Below are positions 1-34,581 of a stretch of 59,156 nt of DNA, piece after piece; position 1 is the stretch's first letter; each line of letters opens with the position of its first letter. The notes below the pieces were generated by a model. It made no database searches. It worked only from the letters and a program-made list of their open reading frames with translations, and was not told the origin of the DNA. The stretch comes from Escherichia phage vB_EcoM_PD328. A program made the position numbers and the translations under genes. Location: sequence record ON922918. One strand, written 5' to 3'.

Positions 1-2
1 AC

Positions 3-1394
3 ATGCAGAAGCTCCAGGACTTACCGTTCCCAGCGCATTGGGCGCTGTCCATAGAGCAGATTGCTATTGTGCGCTTCTACTGTATTAACGACCTTGATAC
101 AACAATGGCTCTGTTTAACTCACTGGAAGAGCAAATCCATCTACGTGAGATTATGAGTGAAGAGTATAAAGTAGATCTTCGCTCTAAATCTGATGCACAA
201 ATTGCAGAAGCTGTAATCCGTCATGAGATGAAGCAAATGCTGGGCTTTGTACCACAGAAAGGGATGGTGGAAGTCGGTAGAACCTTTAGATACAATCCTC
301 CAGTGTGGTTAGGTTTCCAGACGCCACTAATGAAGTCCGTATTTCAGGTGGTGCTTGACAGTTACTTCCGAGTTGCAGAAGATGGTAAAATTAAGCAACC
401 ATCCACAATGAACTCTCTGAAGTTTACAATCAACCAGACAACTTACAACATGGGTATCGGTGGTCTGCACTCGTGCGAAGAGTTAATGGAGATTGTACCA
501 TCTGAAGACGAAGAGATGTGGGATGCTGACGTAACATCGTACTACCCAATCTGTATCATTAACCAGCAACTGTATCCTGAACACCTGGGCCCGCGCTTTA
601 TAGATATCTTCGTTAAGATCGTAGAACGACGTATTGCAGCTAAGATGGCTCATGACGATAAGACTGCACAAACTCTTAAGATCGTTATTAACGGTTCTTA
701 TGGTAAGTTTGGTTCACCGTTCTCTATTCTGTATGCACCGCATCTTATTATTCAGACCACATTGACAGGTCAGTTAGCTCTACTTATGCTCATTGAAACA
801 CTGGAGCTTAACGGTATCCAGGTTGTTAGTGCTAACACAGATGGTATCGTTATTAAACCTTGCAAAGCTAAGAAGCAATTAATGACTGATATCATTAAGT
901 GGTGGGAAGCGACAACTGGCTTTGAAATGGAACTGAATCAGTACCTGCGCCTTAATTCTGCAAACGTTAACAACTACGTCGCAATTAAGGCGGATGGTAA
1001 AGCCAAGCGTAAAGGTTGGTTCGCAGAGACAGGCCTTGCTAAGAACGCGGAAGGTGAGATCATCATGGATGCTGTGGTTAATCTTCTCCGTGACGGTACG
1101 CCAATTGCTAAAACTATCACAGAGTGTCAGGACATTCGTAAGTTTGTTTGTATCAAGACAGCTAATGGTGGAGCTGCGTGGAATAGTGAGCCATTAGGTA
1201 AGGTTGTTCGCTGGTACTATACAAAAGAAGAAGTACCTGAAATACTGATAGTCAAGAGTGGGGGTCGTGTCGGTAAGACAGCAGGGGGTAAACCAATGAT
1301 GGAACTCACTGACCAGTTACCGCCAGATCTCAACCACGAAGTATACATAGCTAAAGCGGAAAAATTGCTGGAAAAACTCGCATACGCCGCTTAA
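3..1394 (+). CDS. DNA polymerase, 3' part (gene begins at 58452 and wraps across the window join)
   Basis: Family-B-like polymerase motifs in translation: DVTSYYPICII (motif A-like), KIVINGSYGKFG (motif B-like), SANTDGIVI (motif C-like), KADGKAKRKGWF (KxY-like). In frame with the ORF that starts at 58452 once the 125-nt terminal duplication is accounted for. Confidence 0.75.
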   Translation: MQKLQDLPFPAHWALSIEQIAIVRFYCINDLDTTMALFNSLEEQIHLREIMSEEYKVDLRSKSDAQIAEAVIRHEMKQMLGFVPQKGMVEVGRTFRYNPPVWLGFQTPLMKSVFQVVLDSYFRVAEDGKIKQPSTMNSLKFTINQTTYNMGIGGLHSCEELMEIVPSEDEEMWDADVTSYYPICIINQQLYPEHLGPRFIDIFVKIVERRIAAKMAHDDKTAQTLKIVINGSYGKFGSPFSILYAPHLIIQTTLTGQLALLMLIETLELNGIQVVSANTDGIVIKPCKAKKQLMTDIIKWWEATTGFEMELNQYLRLNSANVNNYVAIKADGKAKRKGWFAETGLAKNAEGEIIMDAVVNLLRDGTPIAKTITECQDIRKFVCIKTANGGAAWNSEPLGKVVRWYYTKEEVPEILIVKSGGRVGKTAGGKPMMELTDQLPPDLNHEVYIAKAEKLLEKLAYAA

Positions 1395-1395
1395 T

Positions 1396-1432
1396 AAAAA
1401 GTGGGCCAATACATTTGTACTGGCCCACAATA
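1396..1432. terminator. bidirectional hairpin between convergent polymerase and tail-fibre-assembly genes
   Basis: GTGGGCCA...TGGCCCAC inverted repeat flanked by an A-run upstream and AATAAAAT downstream; lies between convergent stop codons. Confidence 0.5.
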
Positions 1433-1464
1433 AAATGCCCTAAAATGCCGTACGTTGCCTGCGC

Positions 1465-2043
1465 TTATTCTGGAGACTCAGGCCAGATAATATTCTGTGG
1501 ATCATTTTCATTTATGCGGTTGACAAGTACACGAAACTTTCTCCACGAATCCAACATTGAACTTTCTTCGTCAGTAGCTAGATTATAAGTTACAGCATCT
1601 TGTAAAATACTGATTTTATAATCTGCTAAATTAAGAAGATCTGTTTTGTGTTGTGTTGCATCTGCAACCGACTTAGCATGTTGTGCGTCCGGATCGTTTA
1701 CCCACATATTGCCGTTCCACTTCATGTGTTCACCATCGGGAGCGATATAAGTTACATTATCCGGAAGCGACCCAATTGTGGTTATTACTAAAGGAAGTCC
1801 AGTATCTTTATCATATACAACTTTCCCTCGGTGGTCTTCAAGTAAGATCCATACTTGACTTTCTGGTCTAAATATTGCCACGTGATTTTCTGGAGCCACT
1901 GGAGGCTCCATGTCTGTGCAACCTGCTGGAAGACCTGTGTTGGCTACTACATACGCTTCACGGGTTCCCACATATTCGCCAGTATCGCTGGAGTAGTCGT
2001 ACACGGTTACAGTCTGGTCTTCATTACTCATTTCAAAAGACAT
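1465..2043 (-). CDS. tail fibre assembly protein (Tfa-like chaperone)
   Basis: 192 aa; C-terminal region (KFRVLVNRI...IWPESP) resembles the conserved Tfa C-terminal domain; sits immediately downstream of the tail fibre gene, with ATG overlapping the fibre stop. Confidence 0.65.
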   Translation of the reverse strand: MSFEMSNEDQTVTVYDYSSDTGEYVGTREAYVVANTGLPAGCTDMEPPVAPENHVAIFRPESQVWILLEDHRGKVVYDKDTGLPLVITTIGSLPDNVTYIAPDGEHMKWNGNMWVNDPDAQHAKSVADATQHKTDLLNLADYKISILQDAVTYNLATDEESSMLDSWRKFRVLVNRINENDPQNIIWPESPE

Positions 2044-5000
2044 TAAGCAGCCCTCACAATATAGTTGAATGCAACGTTCTTGACAGTGTTTTCTGTGTTG
2101 CCAGTTGCGTTAACTGTAACACCGTGGCTGTGTGAACCTAAAGCGACTGTGTGACTATGAGCACCAATACCAACTGTATGGGTATGAGCACCAATACCAA
2201 CAGTATGTGCGTGAGCGCCTGCGCTTGCAGCAGTACCAGATATAGAGTGCGAATGTGCCCCAGAAGAAGAAGTTCCAAGCGTATTACCACCACCGGCGGA
2301 TCCTCTTATAGCACCAATACCAGGAGCGTTGTTACTTCCCGCATAAAGAGCGCTTGTGTGGCTGTGCGCACCGGCGGTGTTTGTGGAACCGCTCAAACTA
2401 TGCGTATGCGCACCAGTATTATTACTCGTTTTAGTACCGTAATCGAAACTACTTGTCCCTTTAGTACCGTAATCAAAGCTAGAAGTCGTTTTACTTCCAA
2501 GATCGACAGATGCAGTAGACGCAGTGTGGGTATGCGATTTCACACCATCCGCTTCTGTAGAAAGTACGTCACGACCGCTTGCAGGCTTACCTTTGATAGT
2601 TTGACCACGCATGTCTGGCAGTACGCCCGACGGGTATGCAGCAGCCAATTGAGGGTATGCAGCTTTGTCGAATTCCTGCCCTTGCATCACGATGTATCCG
2701 GACGGAGGTGTATCCGTAGGCCACGGTAATGGGACACCTACAGGTAAACTTTCAGCTACAGGAGGTGGGTTCTTTTTAGTGTAAATTTGATCCCAGCCTT
2801 CTTCGAAACCGTGACCATCACGCGATGTACGATACCAAAGACCGCCATTCCTATACGTAGCTCTTATCTGCAAAGAAGGTGTTGAGGAGACAGCATTTTG
2901 ATAGTAATGCACTACAAGGTCCGAGCTGCCCTTTCTCGCATGCTTATAGACACCAGATATAGCGTTCCATGGAACACTGTTATTGTCTATATCACCTCCT
3001 ACAGTAATAATACCTGTTTGTCCTAACGCAAACGCATTCACGTTTCTAGGTGGAATCGATATATCTCCACTACCATCAAAAAGCACATTAGCAATCCTAC
3101 GTGCTGTCTGTAGTTTGGTGGCAGTTGCAGCGTTACCAGTTGTGTTCTGATTACCCTGAATGTTGACGCCTGGAAGATTGACGTCAGCAGTACCGTCGAA
3201 TGAGGCGCCACCAATTTTACGCGCAGTTTGTAGCTTCGTAGCACTGGACGCGTTACCATTCACACCTTGACCGGCGTTCAATTTAGTGCCAATAGTGAAC
3301 TCACCAGTAGCGTTATCAATCATAAATGGTCTTAGATTGTTCCAACCACCGTATTGATCGCCTTTAGCAGTGAATAAAAGATATGTCTTGGTGCCGTCAT
3401 TGCGCCATAATGCACCGTAGTCCCCACCAATCATACGGACCTGATTTCCACCGCGAGCTACAATTTCATCATTAGCGTAGATTTTACGACCACTAATATC
3501 TACATCCGTGATGAGTGCGTGCGAACTATAAAACCCTTTACCATTCGAGAAATCAAGTATAGTATCGGCCTCAATACATTCTGTTTTAGGGTTTGTGGCG
3601 CCCCATTTGTAAGTTGATTGCCCGATAACATAATCGGCAGATGGTACAACAACAGATAAGCCTTCTTCTACATATACAGCAATAGGAAACGCTTCACCTT
3701 CAACATAGAACACAGAACACAGATCATCCGCTTTGTTACCCATCATGATAGAATGAATAGCACGCTCATTTGCGCTATATGCGTGAAACATCCCATAAGC
3801 ATATTTTCCTCTGTCAGTCCAACCACCGGGCATGACAAATCCGTTGAACTCGCAGTTGTTTAGTCTATGGTCTCCTGTTCTTGAACGTGTACTTATCGTC
3901 ACCCTAGATGCTAATTCATCAACGAATCCAGCAGAACGACGAATGACCACAGGATAAAACTTACCTGCTTCAACTCCTGCGGGAGCATTCACTGTCGAAA
4001 ACTTCATTCCCCGTTTAGCGGCCATATCAGTCTTGCTGGCAGCATTAATGTTACTTAGAAAGCGACCCTTGTCCGGTATATCTGCACCGTTCTGATTCTT
4101 CTGCAATGCACCGAGAGCTAAGTTAACAGTCTCGCGTAAACCAACGTTATCAATGAACAGTTGCTTATTAGGAATGTCAGCACCGTTCTGGTCTTTGGCC
4201 AACTTACTGTTAATAAGTGTGGTTATAGTCGTTGCAAAGTTTGGATCATCACCAAGAGCGTCAGCTAACTCTTTCAGAGTGTTTAACGCATCTGGTGCAT
4301 CACCAATCAGTGCGCTTATAATTTGGTGCACAAACTGAGTTGTGGCAATCTGATTGTTATTAACTTCAGGTGCTGGAGTTGGTGCCGTTGGTACACCAGT
4401 TAGAACAGGACTACTTAACGGAGCTTTAGTATTAGCAACGTCCATGACTGCTTTAACAGCTTTCGGTGTAGCTGCCAGGTTCTCGGCGGTGCTGTTAGTA
4501 TCATTGCTAAGACGAACGATACCTTTAGTAGTCAAGGACGCATCTTCAAGACCAATTGCATCAGCAATCTCTTCCGCACGTTCAGCAGCAGCTTCTGAAC
4601 GCAAGGCGGCAGACTCAGATCTTCCAGCTGATGTACCAGCATTAGTTTCTGACGCTTTAGCGTTGGTTTCGCTCGCTTTAGCTGCGGTAGCACTAGCGGC
4701 AGACTCACCGGCTTTGTTAGTCGCAGTCTGAGCGGAAGCTGCCGCATTAGTTTCAGACGTAGACGCTGAAGCTGCCTTCTGTGTTGCAACCGTCTCACTT
4801 GCCTTAGCTGCATTAGCTGCGGTCTGCGATTTACCAGCAGAAGTAGCGGACTCAACTGCACTTGCTTCGGATGCGGCCTTTGCTGCCTCAGCAGCTACTT
4901 TCGCCTGATTAGCAGTGGTTGCACTTGCAGACGCTTCTTTTGCTTTAGTATCAGCCAAAGTCGCATTATTAGCAGATGCAGTTTCTGATACTTTAGCATT

Positions 5001-28733: not shown

Positions 28734-29071
28734 TAGAACACTTCCTTAAACAAATCAAATTTAACATGCTCGTAGATTTTATTCAGCTGAGTCAGCTTAC
28801 GAATAAATTCTTTACTGGTATTCTCGTCAATTGCACAGGTATCCGTCTGGATCTTCCATGTGTCGGAACGCAAGCGAAGCAGGAACGAACCGTTCGGGTA
28901 AACCGTCTTCGCTTCTGGCATATAGTGCAGAATACAGGATATCGTCCCTTCAGGTGGTATAAGAACAATATAAGTATCATTCACGTCGCTGTGACTAATA
29001 ATCCAACCGCTCTGCAACAAAGCATCCCGGAGCTGGCAATACATTTTCGGAATAACGATATCTTTGGCCAT
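28733..29071 (-). CDS. hypothetical protein
   Basis: 112 aa ORF, translationally coupled to neighbours. Confidence 0.3.
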   Translation of the reverse strand: MAKDIVIPKMYCQLRDALLQSGWIISHSDVNDTYIVLIPPEGTISCILHYMPEAKTVYPNGSFLLRLRSDTWKIQTDTCAIDENTSKEFIRKLTQLNKIYEHVKFDLFKEVF

Positions 29072-29436
29072 TATTGTACTTCCACAATTAATAATTCACC
29101 ATGACGTACACGAGCAAGTTCGTATAAATCTTGTTTCTGCGCAATGTCCAATTGGCAATCAAGGATTGCAATATCACAATGGAAGCCACTCGTACGAATG
29201 ACAGTGTCTTCATATGAGGCTTTGTGATAAGAAACCAAACGAATGTGGAAACGATCAAACTGTACTACGGACGACTCACGCGACAGTTGCACACAGCGAA
29301 CGAATTCAGGATCTTCACGCAACACTTCTTCGAGCTGGCGGCGATAATCATTATTCGGACACAAAGTAAAAGCGATGCGATCGTCTTTCAACTGTGGCCT
29401 CAACATAGACCAGGCTTTAACTATATTCTCGTTCAT
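29071..29436 (-). CDS. hypothetical protein (first gene of the minus-strand early operon)
   Basis: 121 aa ORF adjacent to the divergent control region. Confidence 0.3.
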   Translation of the reverse strand: MNENIVKAWSMLRPQLKDDRIAFTLCPNNDYRRQLEEVLREDPEFVRCVQLSRESSVVQFDRFHIRLVSYHKASYEDTVIRTSGFHCDIAILDCQLDIAQKQDLYELARVRHGELLIVEVQ

Positions 29437-29941
29437 ATAACCCCCTTTAACGTTAACGGAATAACTATAGCAGGATACGCAAGTTGATTAACATACGTGA
29501 TCGCAACAATTAATAACCACAGTTAGTCGTCTCGTGTGCTTTAATTCATGATGCCGCAAATCAGCTACGCATACCGGCAAACCGAATATTGTAATCGTCT
29601 CTCGAGTATTTACATACGGAACTAGCTTCATACGAACAATATAGGACAGGTGAGGTGGGGATACAAAGTGTCTAGTGACGAGATAATCTACAAACGATGA
29701 ATCCTTGGCAGAGATCTAAGAGCCGCCCCGCGGCGTTACTATAACGTCCCGTGATCGTCAGTGAGGTGATTGTTACGTCATGTGACTGTCGCGCGCTCTA
29801 TTGTAACGTTGTTTATTATTACACGCGTTATTATTTTTTATTTGATTAGTGTGCTATCTATCGCATGACTATATTATACCGTCCAGTATAATTACATCTG
29901 TTACTATCTACCTGCCCACTATGTGCTGTCTATGTATGTGC

Positions 29942-30008
29942 TACCTGGTATTTCCTGCGCGTGCTGTTACCTGGTATTTTCGACACGCTCGCGCTACCTG
30001 GTATTTCC
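29942..30008. repeat. three direct repeats of TACCTGGTATTTYC in the divergent intergenic region
   Basis: Copies at about 29942, 29968 and 29995 with 26-27 bp periodicity, each preceded by GTGCT. Confidence 0.6.
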
Positions 30009-30089
30009 GGCACACCGTCTACCGTATAGTCCCGGATGTTATTATTATGAAACACAACTAAAAAAGTTCTAAAATAATGCAGATAATAG

Positions 30090-30118
30090 TTGCATCTGAT
30101 ACCCTGCTGTCATATTAT
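30090..30118 (+). promoter_or_regulatory. sigma70-type early promoter (TTGCAT-17 bp-TATTAT)
   Basis: Near-consensus -35 and -10 hexamers with a 17-bp spacer, about 75 nt upstream of the first plus-strand gene. Confidence 0.55.
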
Positions 30119-30193
30119 AAACGCGTGGGGTAAAGGGGGTTTTCAAGCGGGACACGGGTTCCGCGCCCGCTTCACCCGAAGGGAGATTGCATT

Positions 30194-30499
30194 ATGTCCA
30201 TTATCTACTTACCGCGTTCTATGTCCCAGTCCATGATCACCAAACGTATTATCGGCAAGCGCCTGCACCAACTGGGCCTTACTGCGGAAAAGGTTAACGG
30301 GGATTGGGATTTCGACGAGTATCTGGTAATGCTCCCGGGCAACGAAAAATATTCCAGCACCGCGTTGTATATTCGCATTAACGAGGACGGCACTGTCAGC
30401 TCTTATAGCGTAATGTATGGTAGACCAGTATGTCAAGCGAATAGCCTTTGGTCTGTGTTCTGCTTTATTACAATGATAGCGAAAGCTATCCAACAATAA
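30194..30499 (+). CDS. hypothetical early protein (paralogue of the 32116 gene)
   Basis: 101 aa; shares SQSMITKRIIGKR with the 32116 protein (NQSMITRRIIGKR) and a conserved Y...DG.V...GR.V segment. Confidence 0.5.
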   Translation: MSIIYLPRSMSQSMITKRIIGKRLHQLGLTAEKVNGDWDFDEYLVMLPGNEKYSSTALYIRINEDGTVSSYSVMYGRPVCQANSLWSVFCFITMIAKAIQQ

Positions 30500-30575
30500 T
30501 AGCGTGCTAATGGTTGCCCATTGTTACAGTGGGCTCCCACTAGCAATCCGCTAGATCAACATGGAGATAATCACA

Positions 30576-31055
30576 ATGGTTACTATCACCCGCGTAGCAA
30601 AAGACGCTCGCTTTTTCACCAACATGTCTAACGCTCGCCGCGCCTTAAAAAAGGTTCTGGATGTAGACACTGCGACAGCTAATAGCTTTATTCACCAGGA
30701 ACCGCACGAGGACGGTGGCCGCTACTGGTTCAGCGAAAGCGCGGTTAATAAGGCAGCTAACGATCTGGTTGAAGCTGATAAAGCGACTGTCGTGGAAGTG
30801 ACCACACAACAAGCTCCAACCGCTCCCGTTAAAAGTAAAACGCGCAGCGAAACGCGCAACGGGGTCCGCCGGCCCATTAAAGGTAAATGCGCAGACGTTT
30901 GGAACGCTCTGGATAATATGTTGCCTAATGGTGTGCCAACTATTGGTAACGTCCGTGACCTTGCGAAAGCTAATGGTTGGAATATTAATAATGCAACGAT
31001 TGAATTCTACGCATGGCGTAAATTCCACGGGCTCAATAATAAAGGGGGTAACTAA
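30576..31055 (+). CDS. hypothetical protein
   Basis: 160 aa from the second ATG (GGAGA RBS); no recognised motif. Confidence 0.4.
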   Translation: MVTITRVAKDARFFTNMSNARRALKKVLDVDTATANSFIHQEPHEDGGRYWFSESAVNKAANDLVEADKATVVEVTTQQAPTAPVKSKTRSETRNGVRRPIKGKCADVWNALDNMLPNGVPTIGNVRDLAKANGWNINNATIEFYAWRKFHGLNNKGGN

Positions 31056-31133
31056 TTATGTTCTACTTATTAGCGTTCTTGGTATTCGGTGCTCCAATAG
31101 TTGCGGGTCTGTATTATACGGAGGGCAAATAAT

Positions 31134-31319
31134 ATGGAAACTATAGTTCTGAATTGCTGGGTTGACCTGGACGAACACGAATATTGCGTGAATATTAACA
31201 ACGGACCAGTCCCGGACGTGACTTTCGCATCCTATGACGAAATGGATGCGTATGTAAAAGGTTTCCGCGAGTGCGCTCGCATTGCAAATATTAACGTGAC
31301 TGTAATTTTACCGGAGTGA
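31134..31319 (+). CDS. hypothetical protein
   Basis: 61 aa from the ATG after a GAGG RBS. Confidence 0.3.
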   Translation: METIVLNCWVDLDEHEYCVNINNGPVPDVTFASYDEMDAYVKGFRECARIANINVTVILPE

Positions 31320-31324
31320 TTATC

Positions 31325-31591
31325 ATGCGTAAAGCTAACAAGAATTCTTTCGTTGAAATGGCTCGTGTTGTTCTCAACCGTCAGTCCTTCTACCTGTACC
31401 ACCGTCACGAATTTGATCTGTGGACTGAAGAGGAAACGTGCTGCCAGTACGAGATCCATACACGGAATGGTGTAATATTCACTTCCAGTAATTATCCGGA
31501 AGTTAAAGAATACTGGGACAAGCTGATCGCTGAAGCGTATGCTGAATTCCAGAAGCAAACTATTTACCCGATGGGCCTTCGCGCTGAGTAA
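31325..31591 (+). CDS. hypothetical protein
   Basis: 88 aa ORF, tightly packed. Confidence 0.35.
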   Translation: MRKANKNSFVEMARVVLNRQSFYLYHRHEFDLWTEEETCCQYEIHTRNGVIFTSSNYPEVKEYWDKLIAEAYAEFQKQTIYPMGLRAE

Positions 31592-31626
31592 TTATTAACG
31601 TCAACATAATTTAAGGAGTGACTATC

Positions 31627-31872
31627 ATGGCCCAAGCTATTATCACAAAATTCGTGAACCCAACTGCCGCTCGTGCTCCGCGCGTAAAAGCAACCGGCTG
31701 GAGCGGTTCTGTAACTATCACATGGCGTGACGATCTGGGCGTTTACGGCAACCACCGCGCAGCAGCGGAGGAGCTGATAAATAAGTTTAACGTTAAAGCG
31801 GGCGTTGAATTTGGGATCCTTGCTGGTGGTGAGCTCCCGGATCAAAGTGGTTACGCGTTTATCGTTCAATAA
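31627..31872 (+). CDS. hypothetical early protein (paralogue of the 32403 gene)
   Basis: 81 aa; AAGGAG RBS; shares a ...AAAEEL...N...ILAGGELPD pattern with the 32403 protein (AAAQELL...ILGVGTLPD). Confidence 0.45.
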   Translation: MAQAIITKFVNPTAARAPRVKATGWSGSVTITWRDDLGVYGNHRAAAEELINKFNVKAGVEFGILAGGELPDQSGYAFIVQ

Positions 31873-31882
31873 GGGGATAATC

Positions 31883-32047
31883 ATGGAACGCAACTATTTC
31901 CAGCTTATTTATCGCGGTCGTTGCTATCACATCCGCAACAAGTTTCGCAACCTGACCCGCGATCAACTTGAGTACGCTATTAATCTGGTTGGTGATGGTC
32001 ACTTCGCTACACTATCAGAAGCGTTAGAATATGTGTCCGCTGAGTGA
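31883..32047 (+). CDS. hypothetical small protein
   Basis: 54 aa from the ATG after an AAGGGG RBS. Confidence 0.3.
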   Translation: MERNYFQLIYRGRCYHIRNKFRNLTRDQLEYAINLVGDGHFATLSEALEYVSAE

Positions 32048-32115
32048 CATATACATTGCCCATAGTAACAGTGGGCAATAATATGCACTTCGCATAGTTA
32101 ACTGAGGAAACTATT

Positions 32116-32373
32116 ATGTCTACAATATTAAACCAGTCCATGATCACTCGTCGCATTATTGGAAAACGTATAGCTAATCTTGCGACTATCACCGCAGAGC
32201 TGGAAACTTTCGGTAATAACGCGCGCAAATATCGCGTCCGTTGCAATGGTCTTAACGTTTATTTAACAGTGTTCAACGACGGTAGAGTTCACGCGGAACT
32301 GCATACTATGGGCCGCCTGGTTGCAACCGCGTCCACGCTGGTGGGCTTCATCAACCTGTTAAAAAGCTGCTAA
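32116..32373 (+). CDS. hypothetical early protein (paralogue of the 30194 gene)
   Basis: 85 aa; N-terminal motif NQSMITRRIIGKR shared with the 30194 protein. Confidence 0.5.
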   Translation: MSTILNQSMITRRIIGKRIANLATITAELETFGNNARKYRVRCNGLNVYLTVFNDGRVHAELHTMGRLVATASTLVGFINLLKSC

Positions 32374-32402
32374 CTTTTAAAATTGTAACGGAGGTAAATA
32401 AT

Positions 32403-32651
32403 ATGAACGCTATCCATGTCAAAGCACTAGCACCGACTCAATCCAAAGGTATGCGCTTCAAAGCGGTCGGCCTCGGTATGTGCGCAGTAACTGCAAACGA
32501 CTACAACCTCAACGGTGAAGCGAACGCGGCTGCCGCTGCCCAGGAGTTACTGGACAACTACAATATGCAGAACCAGTCGCTTCAACTTAAAATACTTGGA
32601 GTTGGTACGCTTCCAGATAATACCTGGGCGGTACTATTAACCTGTAAATAA
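32403..32651 (+). CDS. hypothetical early protein (paralogue of the 31627 gene)
   Basis: 82 aa; conserved pattern shared with the 31627 protein. Confidence 0.45.
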   Translation: MNAIHVKALAPTQSKGMRFKAVGLGMCAVTANDYNLNGEANAAAAAQELLDNYNMQNQSLQLKILGVGTLPDNTWAVLLTCK

Positions 32652-33689
32652 CTTCTAACTGCATTATATAATCCGCGCCCTGTTGAAGTCCAACGGGGCG
32701 CTTTCGTTTTTGTACCCGCACCACCTCCCCGCGCTACCCTGCTGACCACATGTTACTCACCCATAACTCCACCATTCGCGCTCTAAGAGCGTAAACCCTT
32801 CCTCCGTATATTACCATTGACACAAATATAGTCGCCTTATACGCGCTTACAGCGATCCACTCCCTGCATCCCTGTACGCGATTTGGGGGCATTTTCACCC
32901 CTCGCTGCCACCCTTACACCGATCCAACCGCTTTATCGCGCTACGTGCCCCGTTTTCGCGGCTATTTTCGCTTTATGGGCGACCCGCTACACCGATCTCA
33001 GCCACCCAACCTCACCGAAAAGCCACCTTTCACCGAAAAATCCGGCATTTATACCATAAAATAGAATCGTTTTCGGGCTACAAAATTTCAAACTCAAAAA
33101 TCCGATTCGCTCCGAGAGTCACTTCAACAAAAATCGCTTGCAATCCAATTTTATTTTGTGTTAGACGCACGGGCACGCATTATGCGCAGGCGCCAGGCTC
33201 TGCCCTGTCTACTGACGAGCCAAATTTATAAAGTTCATAAATTCGTATATTTTCGCGTAATATACGAAATGAAAGGAGGTAAGTGCATGAAAAATAAGGT
33301 AAAAATGTGTATATGTGTGTATTTATATAAATTTTATAAAGATTTTTTGTTTTTTGAGTTGTCTACTGACGACCCTACGAGACCCCTTTATAAAATTTAT
33401 AAATTCACACGTTCCCCCCAACCCTCAAAATTTTCCCTTGTTTTTCATACACTTCGCTTCGCCGTTTCGTATATTGCTGGGTCTTTATAAATTGTGCATT
33501 TTTTCACCGATCTTTATAAATGTACAATTTCTCACCTTCAGACTGTTGTAATTTTTGCAAAAGCAAAAACTTTGCATATACAAAACACCGCAAAACATCA
33601 CAGTTGCAAATAGCAAAAACTTTGCATAAATTAAAACTTGGCAACTGAATTTCAAAATCAGTCGATTTATTATTATCAAGGGTGAGGTT
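32652..33689. repeat. about 1 kb non-coding repeat-rich region (candidate replication origin or regulatory/ncRNA locus)
   Basis: No credible ORF on either strand; GC-rich left part with repeated ACACCGATC and CACCGAAAA motifs; AT-rich right part with at least 7 copies of TTTATAAA-type palindromes and two copies of GCAAAAACTTTGCATA. Confidence 0.5.
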
Positions 33690-34310
33690 ATGCGCAATCG
33701 TAAAATTGAAATAACACACGCACACGTACAAGAAATGTTCGGTTACGACGAAGTGATGTACGCCAAAGCGGTAGCTATATTAGAGCAACATAATGATAGC
33801 CTAAGTAATGTGGTCAAAGCATGGAAGGAGGCTGGCCTCGTGTTGCGGCCGAATGCGGTCAAGACGCTGGACGACGGGCGGAAGTATATGTGCTGGTCGG
33901 CTCCGGTGTTGGGGATGATGTTCACTATCGACATCTACTTCGCATACTGGTTGTTAGAGGTGGATTGTGTGATTCCGCTCGACAAGTATATGCGCAGTAA
34001 AGGGTTCAATAGTTGCTTTGATGTTTGCTCTGACACGGAAGGTAACGGTGTTATGATCCTGGGCTTTAAGTGGGTGGATGATAAGTGTGAAATAAGGCCG
34101 CTGCGATATCCACGTGGTAAAGCGCGTCGTGCATATATCGAAGACGGTATTGTTCATTGGTGCAATGTAACGAAGCGTCGAATTAGCACTAACCACATTG
34201 CTCATATCAAAGAGTGCCTCGTTAGACTTCAGACGAATAATAGTGGTAATGTGCAGTTACAGAAAGAATTGCAAGAACTCATTGAGTACATTGATCAGTT
34301 CGGAGCGTGA
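33690..34310 (+). CDS. hypothetical protein
   Basis: 206 aa ORF, Cys-rich, no recognised motif. Confidence 0.45.
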   Translation: MRNRKIEITHAHVQEMFGYDEVMYAKAVAILEQHNDSLSNVVKAWKEAGLVLRPNAVKTLDDGRKYMCWSAPVLGMMFTIDIYFAYWLLEVDCVIPLDKYMRSKGFNSCFDVCSDTEGNGVMILGFKWVDDKCEIRPLRYPRGKARRAYIEDGIVHWCNVTKRRISTNHIAHIKECLVRLQTNNSGNVQLQKELQELIEYIDQFGA

Positions 34311-34311
34311 G

Positions 34312-34581
34312 ATGGCTGACAAACAAGATCTGCTTCCTAAGTGGTATCCAGATTATCGTAAGTCGGATACTTTGATGCGTATTCAGTTTATCTTGGATCA
34401 CCAGACTGACTTTTCATTGCATTTAAGGGAAGAGCTCAAAGAAACGGATGTGAAGAACCTGTGGGCCATTAAGAAACGTCTTCGTTTACGGAAACATCTT
34501 GATGACCTGCATAAAGTTATGCAGAAACTTATACGGTACATAATCCGTATTGAACAATCGCGTGAGATTTGGAGGAAGTGA
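34312..34581 (+). CDS. hypothetical protein
   Basis: 89 aa from the ATG after a GGAG RBS. Confidence 0.35.
   Translation: MADKQDLLPKWYPDYRKSDTLMRIQFILDHQTDFSLHLREELKETDVKNLWAIKKRLRLRKHLDDLHKVMQKLIRYIIRIEQSREIWRK

Follow-up and report, generated by a model that had tools for sequence, protein, structure and literature searches.

A 59,156-nt stretch of DNA from Escherichia phage vB_EcoM_PD328 (record ON922918), referred to below as the window, contains an eight-gene operon with two members from each of two small phage protein families, which we designate A (A1 and A2) and B (B1 and B2). The genes follow the order A1-g164-g61-g91-B1-g54-A2-B2 and end with a terminator (Table 1). A1 and A2, on the one hand, and B1 and B2, on the other, are real and old paralogs, and the two families, with proteins of ~80 to 100 residues, are unrelated to each other. 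To judge from related genomes, these genes very probably make up a pre-early block that lies inside the terminal repeat and is thereby found at both ends of the virion DNA. The overall explanation that we favor, with a probability of about one half, is that these old paralogs in the first operon are pre-early, non-enzymatic binding proteins; its descriptive parts are held with high confidence, and its functional part is offered tentatively, as somewhat less probable than the explanation as a whole.

The 4.3 kb around the four genes are 90 to 93% identical to the corresponding regions of BRET, JenK1, JenP2, 9g, and other members of Nonagvirus (Queuovirinae), and the window, judged by its sequence, is a Nonagvirus (9g-like) phage. 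The map of open reading frames (ORFs) and the GC skew divide it into a minus-strand arm (~1.5 to 29.4 kb) and a plus-strand arm (30.2 to 59 kb). The two arms diverge from an untranslated region of ~750 bp, and the genes from A1 to B2 are the first ones of the plus-strand arm.

All four ORFs are present in the window. The N-terminal motif that the initial annotation had read in both A proteins is found as SQSMITKRIIGKR in A1 and as NQSMITRRIIGKR in A2, and the second pattern, ascribed to the B proteins, reads AAAEEL...ILAGGELPD in B1 and AAAQEL...ILGVGTLPD in B2. BLASTP aligns A1 with A2 at 35% identity over 77 amino acids (aa) (E = 2e-9) and B1 with B2 at 36% identity over 73 aa (E = 8e-8), and the local alignment scores of these pairs are, respectively, 13.9 and 15.7 standard deviations above the mean of 2000 shuffles. 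Comparison of the subfamily profiles with hhalign yields a 98.2% probability (E = 4e-14) for A1 versus A2 and 97.9% (E = 4e-13) for B1 versus B2. The similarity is therefore significant in pairwise and in profile alignments alike. The shortness of the proteins is the only argument for the alternative that these similarities are due to chance or to composition, or that the ORFs are not genes; it is already refuted by the similarity statistics, and we give it practically no credence. A relationship between the two families was also considered and rejected: hhalign assigns a probability of 0.3% to A versus B, and all A-versus-B shuffle comparisons are at the noise level.

The PHROGs database independently places A1 and A2 in one family, phrog_13865, and B1 and B2 in another, phrog_3199. 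All four proteins match the respective hidden Markov models (HMMs) with high significance: A1 with E = 1.3e-60 (positions 1 to 101 of 101), A2 with E = 7.2e-36 (positions 6 to 95 of 101), B1 with E = 4.6e-28, and B2 with E = 2.9e-25. Both B proteins cover only the first 80 of the 181 positions of the phrog_3199 profile. These are, then, small early accessory genes that are already catalogued in two PHROGs; the PHROG records, however, are without the function of the families, their pairing, their double copy, or their location in the terminal repeat. Among close relatives, A1, A2, B1, and B2 show nonsynonymous substitution rates (dN) of 0.01 to 0.06 versus synonymous rates (dS) of 0.03 to 0.63. 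These values mark all four as protein-coding genes that are expressed and kept by purifying selection.

Both families were mapped in 20 or more related loci, which revealed three arrangements. Type I, found in the Nonagvirus phages of E. coli (the window, BRET, JenK1, JenP2, and five IMG/VR contigs), comprises A1, B1, A2, and B2. Type II, found in 9g, JenP1, and SE1, comprises A1, B1, and B2 without A2, and the leader that precedes A2 in the window (LTEETIM...) directly precedes B2 instead. The third arrangement, seen in Klebsiella-type Queuovirinae and four metagenomic lineages, consists of one A gene followed at once by a B2-type gene, with a g164-like gene upstream; the ribosome-binding site of B is usually located inside A, and the stop and start codons overlap in an AAATGA sequence. 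An A gene directly before a B2-type gene is thus found in nine lineages, the window's own group and eight outside the E. coli group, and the junction in these eight is either an AAATGA-type overlap or a pair of abutting codons. A1 and B1, in contrast, are nowhere direct neighbors: each of the 10 Nonagvirus loci has two to three unrelated genes between them.

Phylogenetic trees were built by neighbor joining with 60 to 100 bootstraps and midpoint rooting and, being this simple and midpoint-rooted, are indicative only. A2 groups with the single A protein of the Klebsiella-type relatives (99% bootstrap support), and A1 forms a deep branch with one metagenomic protein (89%). B2 falls within a Queuovirinae clade (85 to 95%) that includes Klebsiella and Vibrio Queuovirinae, and B1 groups with a protein of Pseudomonas phage Kassivere (83%) on the far side of the split from the B2 clade. 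The distance between A1 and B1 and the finding that neither pair of copies forms a sister group in the trees argue for either ancient paralogs or separate acquisitions. The conserved functional unit appears to be an A gene followed by a B2-type gene, often with translational coupling, and A2-B2 would be its only counterpart in the window. A1 and B1 would be extra, deeply diverged copies that have been retained or acquired separately, as the gene order and the trees indicate.

The initial annotation had gone further and proposed that an ancestral two-gene unit was duplicated and then diverged. The paralogy is solid, and an adjacent A-B unit is indeed ancestral, but A1 and B1 form no such unit and the copies are not the closest relatives of each other. 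The corresponding scenario, in which one ancestral A-B pair was duplicated in tandem in this phage lineage and then diverged rapidly in an arms race with host defenses, would explain why two members of each family are found within 2.5 kb, and the N-terminal motif regions of A1 and A2 still share 78% DNA identity over 36 nt. The variable content of the locus (presence or absence of A2 and swaps of B alleles) also fits an accessory hotspot. We nevertheless regard this scenario as improbable, given the separation of A1 from B1 in every Nonagvirus locus and the placement of A1 and B1 in the trees, away from A2 and B2. The copies, moreover, are only 35 to 36% identical, and no DNA similarity is detectable beyond the 36-nt motif. 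A recent tandem duplication of two genes would be expected to leave both pairs adjacent and the copies as closest relatives, and neither is observed.

The location of the operon is best seen in the records of related phages. Positions 1 to 3367 of the HdK1 record are 100% identical to positions 60693 to 64059 and align to positions 33391..29720 of the window. The HdSG1 record has a perfect direct terminal repeat (DTR) of 3363 bp with the same genes, and the whole operon is found twice in each of these two genomes. Their authors linearized each genome at the point at which most of its reads broke off (PMC6563267, section 2.10). The physical left end of 9g, determined independently from read starts, is the start of a 473-bp untranslated region with two divergent promoters (PMC4276943). 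The left end in the 9g record lies 474 bp upstream of the A1 ortholog, and the distance in HdK1 is identical. The assignment of these genes to the first-transcribed region is thus supported and very probably correct: no other operon precedes theirs after the left end and early promoter of 9g (PMC4276943), and they lie inside the DTR of HdK1 and HdSG1. A member of Seuratvirus, ECP2304 (OR880647.1), has a perfect 3695-bp DTR with a B-family gene, which is not annotated as a coding sequence in the left copy.

Organizationally, the closest known system is the pre-early block in the terminal repeat of T5 and BF23, with the class I early region of T7-like phages also close. The T5/BF23 terminal-repeat genes are read by the host polymerase before the rest of the genome. 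They have been described as shutting off the host and evading restriction (10.1101/866236 and PMC10644984). As in T5, the operon analyzed here would consist of small genes within a long DTR at the end that enters first, by homology to HdK1, HdSG1, and 9g. However, the repeat is ~3.4 kb long, compared to ~10 kb in T5, and none of the searches made detected sequence similarity to T5 genes. In addition, two-step DNA transfer is known for the T5 type, whereas the likeness of Nonagvirus lies in gene location; we found no data on an infection time course or two-step transfer for Nonagvirus in the literature. The T7-like class I early region, which extends between the left end and the RNA polymerase gene, is where B homologs are located in temperate T7-like Pseudomonas phages and prophages, but A and B show no homology to characterized T7 early proteins.

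The two families differ greatly in their distribution. B1-type genes were detected by tblastn in 224 phage records from many genera, all annotated as hypothetical; B carriers include Chi-like, Seurat-like, rV5-like, Pseudomonas, Klebsiella T7-like, and other phages. The Pseudomonas homologs belong to temperate T7-like prophages, in which they occupy the early region, between the genes for integrase and RNA polymerase. When 1.84 billion cluster representatives were searched exhaustively with a profile, only about nine genuine A clusters emerged, the other matches being long repetitive proteins. A word-index search with A2 alone returned four close relatives only; both families were covered in a single search by an alignment in which A and B were concatenated. 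B, which occurs alone in >200 phage genomes, is therefore autonomous, and A is a rare partner, always found with B in the same operon.

Comparison of the window with 9g, JenP1, and SE1, all of which lack A2, shows 90 to 97% protein identity for A1, g164, g61, and g54. The corresponding values are 66 to 80% for B1 and 63 to 66% for B2, with dN of 0.12 to 0.30 and dS of 0.7 to 1.5, while g54, which lies between the two B genes, retains 95 to 98% DNA identity. Because the B genes diverge while g54 stays conserved, they behave as exchangeable cassettes. The swaps of B alleles, the loss of A2, and the presence of g91 fit an accessory hotspot. The replacement of B1 and B2 alleles and the loss of A2 are also consistent with an arms race with host defenses, which the initial annotation had suggested, yet this remains unproven.

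Searches of Pfam, NCBIfam, PADLOC, and PDB sequences gave no significant match for either family, and neither an enzyme motif nor a solved fold corresponds to them. This would fit proteins that act by binding rather than by catalysis. PADLOC and NCBIfam likewise contain no known defense or anti-defense match for A or B, although PADLOC, with its models of defense rather than anti-defense systems, provides a weak test. Searches of the literature on early or anti-defense genes of Nonagvirus and Queuovirinae and on phrog_3199 returned nothing on these genes. A model of B2 based on a 29-sequence alignment (predicted local distance difference test [pLDDT] score of 89) has the order beta1-beta2-beta3-alpha-beta4-beta5, and the invariant residues of the family (A3, I4, K7, T12, R18, K20, and A21) cluster in the first hairpin. 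A model of A2 based on only 8 sequences (pLDDT of 67) consists of an N-terminal helix, a five-stranded meander, and a C-terminal helix; the N-terminal helix, predicted with low confidence, carries the invariant Q-x-x-I-T-x-R-I-I-G motif. A fold search of PDB with A retrieved generic alpha/beta sandwiches only, and a longer B homolog (141 aa), searched for fused domains, gave no family match.

The calculated isoelectric points (pI) are 8.6 for A1, 10.5 for A2, 8.1 for B1, and 7.8 for B2. These neutral-to-basic values argue against the possibility that the proteins are DNA mimics of the Ocr or ArdA type, for which a strongly acidic surface would be expected, and this candidate function was rejected. 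A reading of the N-terminal T-R-R-I-I-G-K sequence of A as a twin-arginine translocation (Tat) signal was rejected as well: the first Arg is replaced by Lys or Ser in relatives, and no hydrophobic h-region follows.

The favored explanation can be put together as follows. The operon would lie inside a terminal repeat of ~3.4 kb and start ~470 bp from the left end of the virion DNA; from this position, it would belong to the first DNA to enter the cell, be read by the host RNA polymerase, and be present in two copies per virion. A and B would be non-enzymatic binding proteins made immediately after DNA entry. Their target may be a conserved host component, which they would bind and thereby neutralize or redirect, be it for host takeover or for counter-defense. 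The part of B at work would be the invariant basic beta-hairpin loop (PT-x-T-K-G-x-R-x-K-A), and that of A, most likely complexed with B, would be the invariant basic helix at the N terminus. Having two diverged copies of each family may provide two specificities, with B as the autonomous, widespread component and A as a rare, lineage-specific partner. A more speculative version, which we consider possible but doubtful, is that A-B represents an unrecognized two-protein pre-early module of the Queuovirinae terminal repeat. B would then be a new widespread family of inhibitors of host factors or of immunity without a counterpart among solved folds, and A would be a lineage-specific retargeting adaptor, with the extra copies and the swaps of B alleles reflecting different host targets.

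Several observations speak against the favored explanation. Only gene order points to a complex of A with B, and the early timing and the DTR are deduced from relatives, not from this phage's own virions. In the window, A2 and B2 lie 29 nt apart, and a ribosome-binding site belongs to B2 itself, which means that B2 can be translated without coupling to A2; furthermore, the 9g-type phages keep B2 without A2, and B2 therefore does not need A2. No dN/dS ratio above 1 was seen among the compared relatives. The model of A is only moderately confident, with its N-terminal motif below a pLDDT of 50. Finally, all structural neighbors of B in BFVD are labeled "uncharacterized," and no annotated homolog indicates a function.

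Two further functional explanations have been weighed against that of early binding proteins directed at the host. B, and perhaps A, might be phage transcription regulators that bind the repeats and palindromes of the terminal repeat (see below) and set the switch from early to late expression. Such a role has been proposed for 9g gp3, the B1 ortholog, which has been described as TetR-like and involved in the switch (PMC4276943); this proposed role is all that B has in common with the TetR family. The 9g record (KJ419279.1) contains this gene at positions 3642 to 3887 (9g_00036) with the note "TetR family transcription regulator." A regulatory role would also agree with three phased direct repeats in the divergent promoter region and two palindromes in the operon, all of them unique in the genome, as well as with the basic character of A2 and the conserved Lys and Arg residues in the beta-hairpin of B. 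Members of the TetR family, however, are ~200 aa long and have an N-terminal helix-turn-helix (TetR_N) and an all-helical two-domain fold. Membership of B1 and B2 in this family was rejected: at E <= 1, neither they nor any of the 29 family members match a Pfam entry, and TetR_N or any other helix-turn-helix is absent from the matches at this threshold. At 81 to 82 aa, with a predicted beta3-alpha-beta2 fold of five strands and a single helix, they do not fit the TetR label attached to gp3, which is corrected here, and no TetR chain appeared in a profile search of PDB. Lastly, phages of E. coli, Vibrio, and Pseudomonas have unrelated promoters and even their own RNA polymerase, yet the residues of B that are most conserved do not differ between them; a common host ligand fits this better than phage-specific operators. 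A role of B in phage transcription appears unlikely.

Alternatively, A-B could be a toxin-antitoxin pair of the hicAB type, in which the toxin gene comes first and B, an antitoxin with a HicB fold, neutralizes A or a HicA-like toxin of the host. The order of a small basic protein and an overlapping downstream gene is that of hicAB, and B persists alone where A2 has been lost, as orphan antitoxins do. Set beside the alpha+beta folds of the HicB N-terminal domain, UPF0150, and dsRBD-like proteins, B scores under the usual significance level, has two extra C-terminal strands, and shows no sequence similarity. Against such a pair, B lacks the C-terminal DNA-binding domain of HicB; neither HicA nor HicB was matched in Pfam; and A1 has no adjacent B. 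No HicA partner, that is, no dsRBD-like mRNA interferase encoded directly upstream, was found. We judge a hicAB-type pair to be very unlikely, well below the regulator in probability.

Four features of these genes appear to be unreported in the literature searched: the doubling of both families, the strict coupling of A with B2, the variation of B in the manner of cassettes, and the position within the terminal repeat. As they stand, the results document two small gene families well but do not amount to a new mechanism. The terminal repeat of Nonagvirus would be a gene-carrying, T5-like pre-early region, and, if the proposed role holds, it would offer pre-early genes that are few, close together, and open to genetic work, in coliphages that are well behaved as a group. 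Two members of Nonagvirus, Bas19 and Bas20, are included in the BASEL collection. Natural variants differ in the presence of A2 and in the alleles of B1 and B2, so differences in host range or in sensitivity to defenses could be mapped directly. A function of B found in this system would annotate hundreds of early genes that are currently labeled "hypothetical."

Table 1. Genes and candidate regulatory elements of the first plus-strand operon in the window
Feature	Coordinates	Strand	Remarks
Direct terminal repeat equivalent	29720..33391	.	By alignment to related Nonagvirus records; holds the whole operon
Sigma-70-like promoter match	29865..29892	+	ATGACT-16-TATAAT, 10 of 12 consensus positions; best match upstream of the operon; predicted from consensus only
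Three direct copies of TACCTGGTATTT	29942..30006	+	26 to 27 bp apart, between the promoter-like sites and A1, inside the direct terminal repeat equivalent
A1	30194..30499	+	101 aa; phrog_13865; first gene of the operon; lone A-family paralog
Palindromic element, copy 1, TTGCCCATTGTTACAGTGGGC	30514..30534	+	Just after A1
g164	30561..31055	+	164 aa, hypothetical; phrog_17772; conserved upstream neighbor of the A-B unit in relatives
g61	31134..31319	+	61 aa, hypothetical; phrog_5461
g91	31316..31591	+	91 aa, hypothetical
B1	31627..31872	+	81 aa; phrog_3199; "Pseudomonas-like" subfamily; ortholog of 9g gp3
g54	31883..32047	+	54 aa, hypothetical; phrog_18706; highly conserved, between the two variable B cassettes
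Palindromic element, copy 2, TTGCCCATAGTAACAGTGGGCAA	32056..32078	+	Just before A2
A2	32116..32373	+	85 aa; basic, pI 10.5; phrog_13865; A member of the conserved A-B unit
B2	32403..32651	+	82 aa; phrog_3199; B member of the conserved A-B unit; confident beta3-alpha-beta2 model
Intrinsic terminator	32675..32711	+	Strong; 11-bp stem with 8 G-C pairs, followed by a T-run; also delimited as 32675-32701; closes the operon

Shine-Dalgarno sequences are found upstream of A1, B1, A2, and B2, that of B1 being AAGGAG, 7 nt upstream of the gene. BPROM promoters are annotated in the 9g record at a place equivalent to that of the promoter-like match, and the HdK1 and HdSG1 records have the terminator annotated at the corresponding position. 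The three exact copies of the direct repeat are the only ones in the genome, and none of 100 shuffles reached this count; they may be operators or other protein-binding sites. The palindrome, TTGCCCA-N7-TGGGC(AA), likewise has only two sites in the genome; it might form a hairpin in the RNA or serve as a binding site. An Rfam scan of positions 29000 to 34500 gave no match at E <= 1.

The gene g91 is found only in the window and in BRET among the 10 Nonagvirus loci compared and is without a PHROG match, and for these reasons it looks like a recent insertion (or moron) in the operon. The C-terminal domain of g164 (residues ~90 to 160) represents another multicopy early family: it recurs in 115 phage records from Queuovirinae, Nipunavirus-like Pseudomonas phages, and Vibrio phages, often in 2 or 3 copies per genome. 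It is always annotated as hypothetical, so that these homologs provide no functional clue, and a PDB search with g164 gave no match.

The 13-mer TGTCTA[C/G]TGACGA has just three copies genome-wide, at positions 29669 to 29681, 33206 to 33218, and 33360 to 33372. Its copies lie near both boundaries of the DTR equivalent (29720 and 33391) and may be linked to the formation of the ends or to packaging. The right boundary is spanned by ~1 kb without a convincing gene (positions 32700 to 33690), the second half of which is AT-rich and contains repeats of the TTTATAAA type, and two copies of AAAGCAAAAACTTTGCATA are located just upstream of the next gene (33690). JenP1 encodes a homing endonuclease at the place equivalent to positions 32700 to 33690, just downstream of B2.

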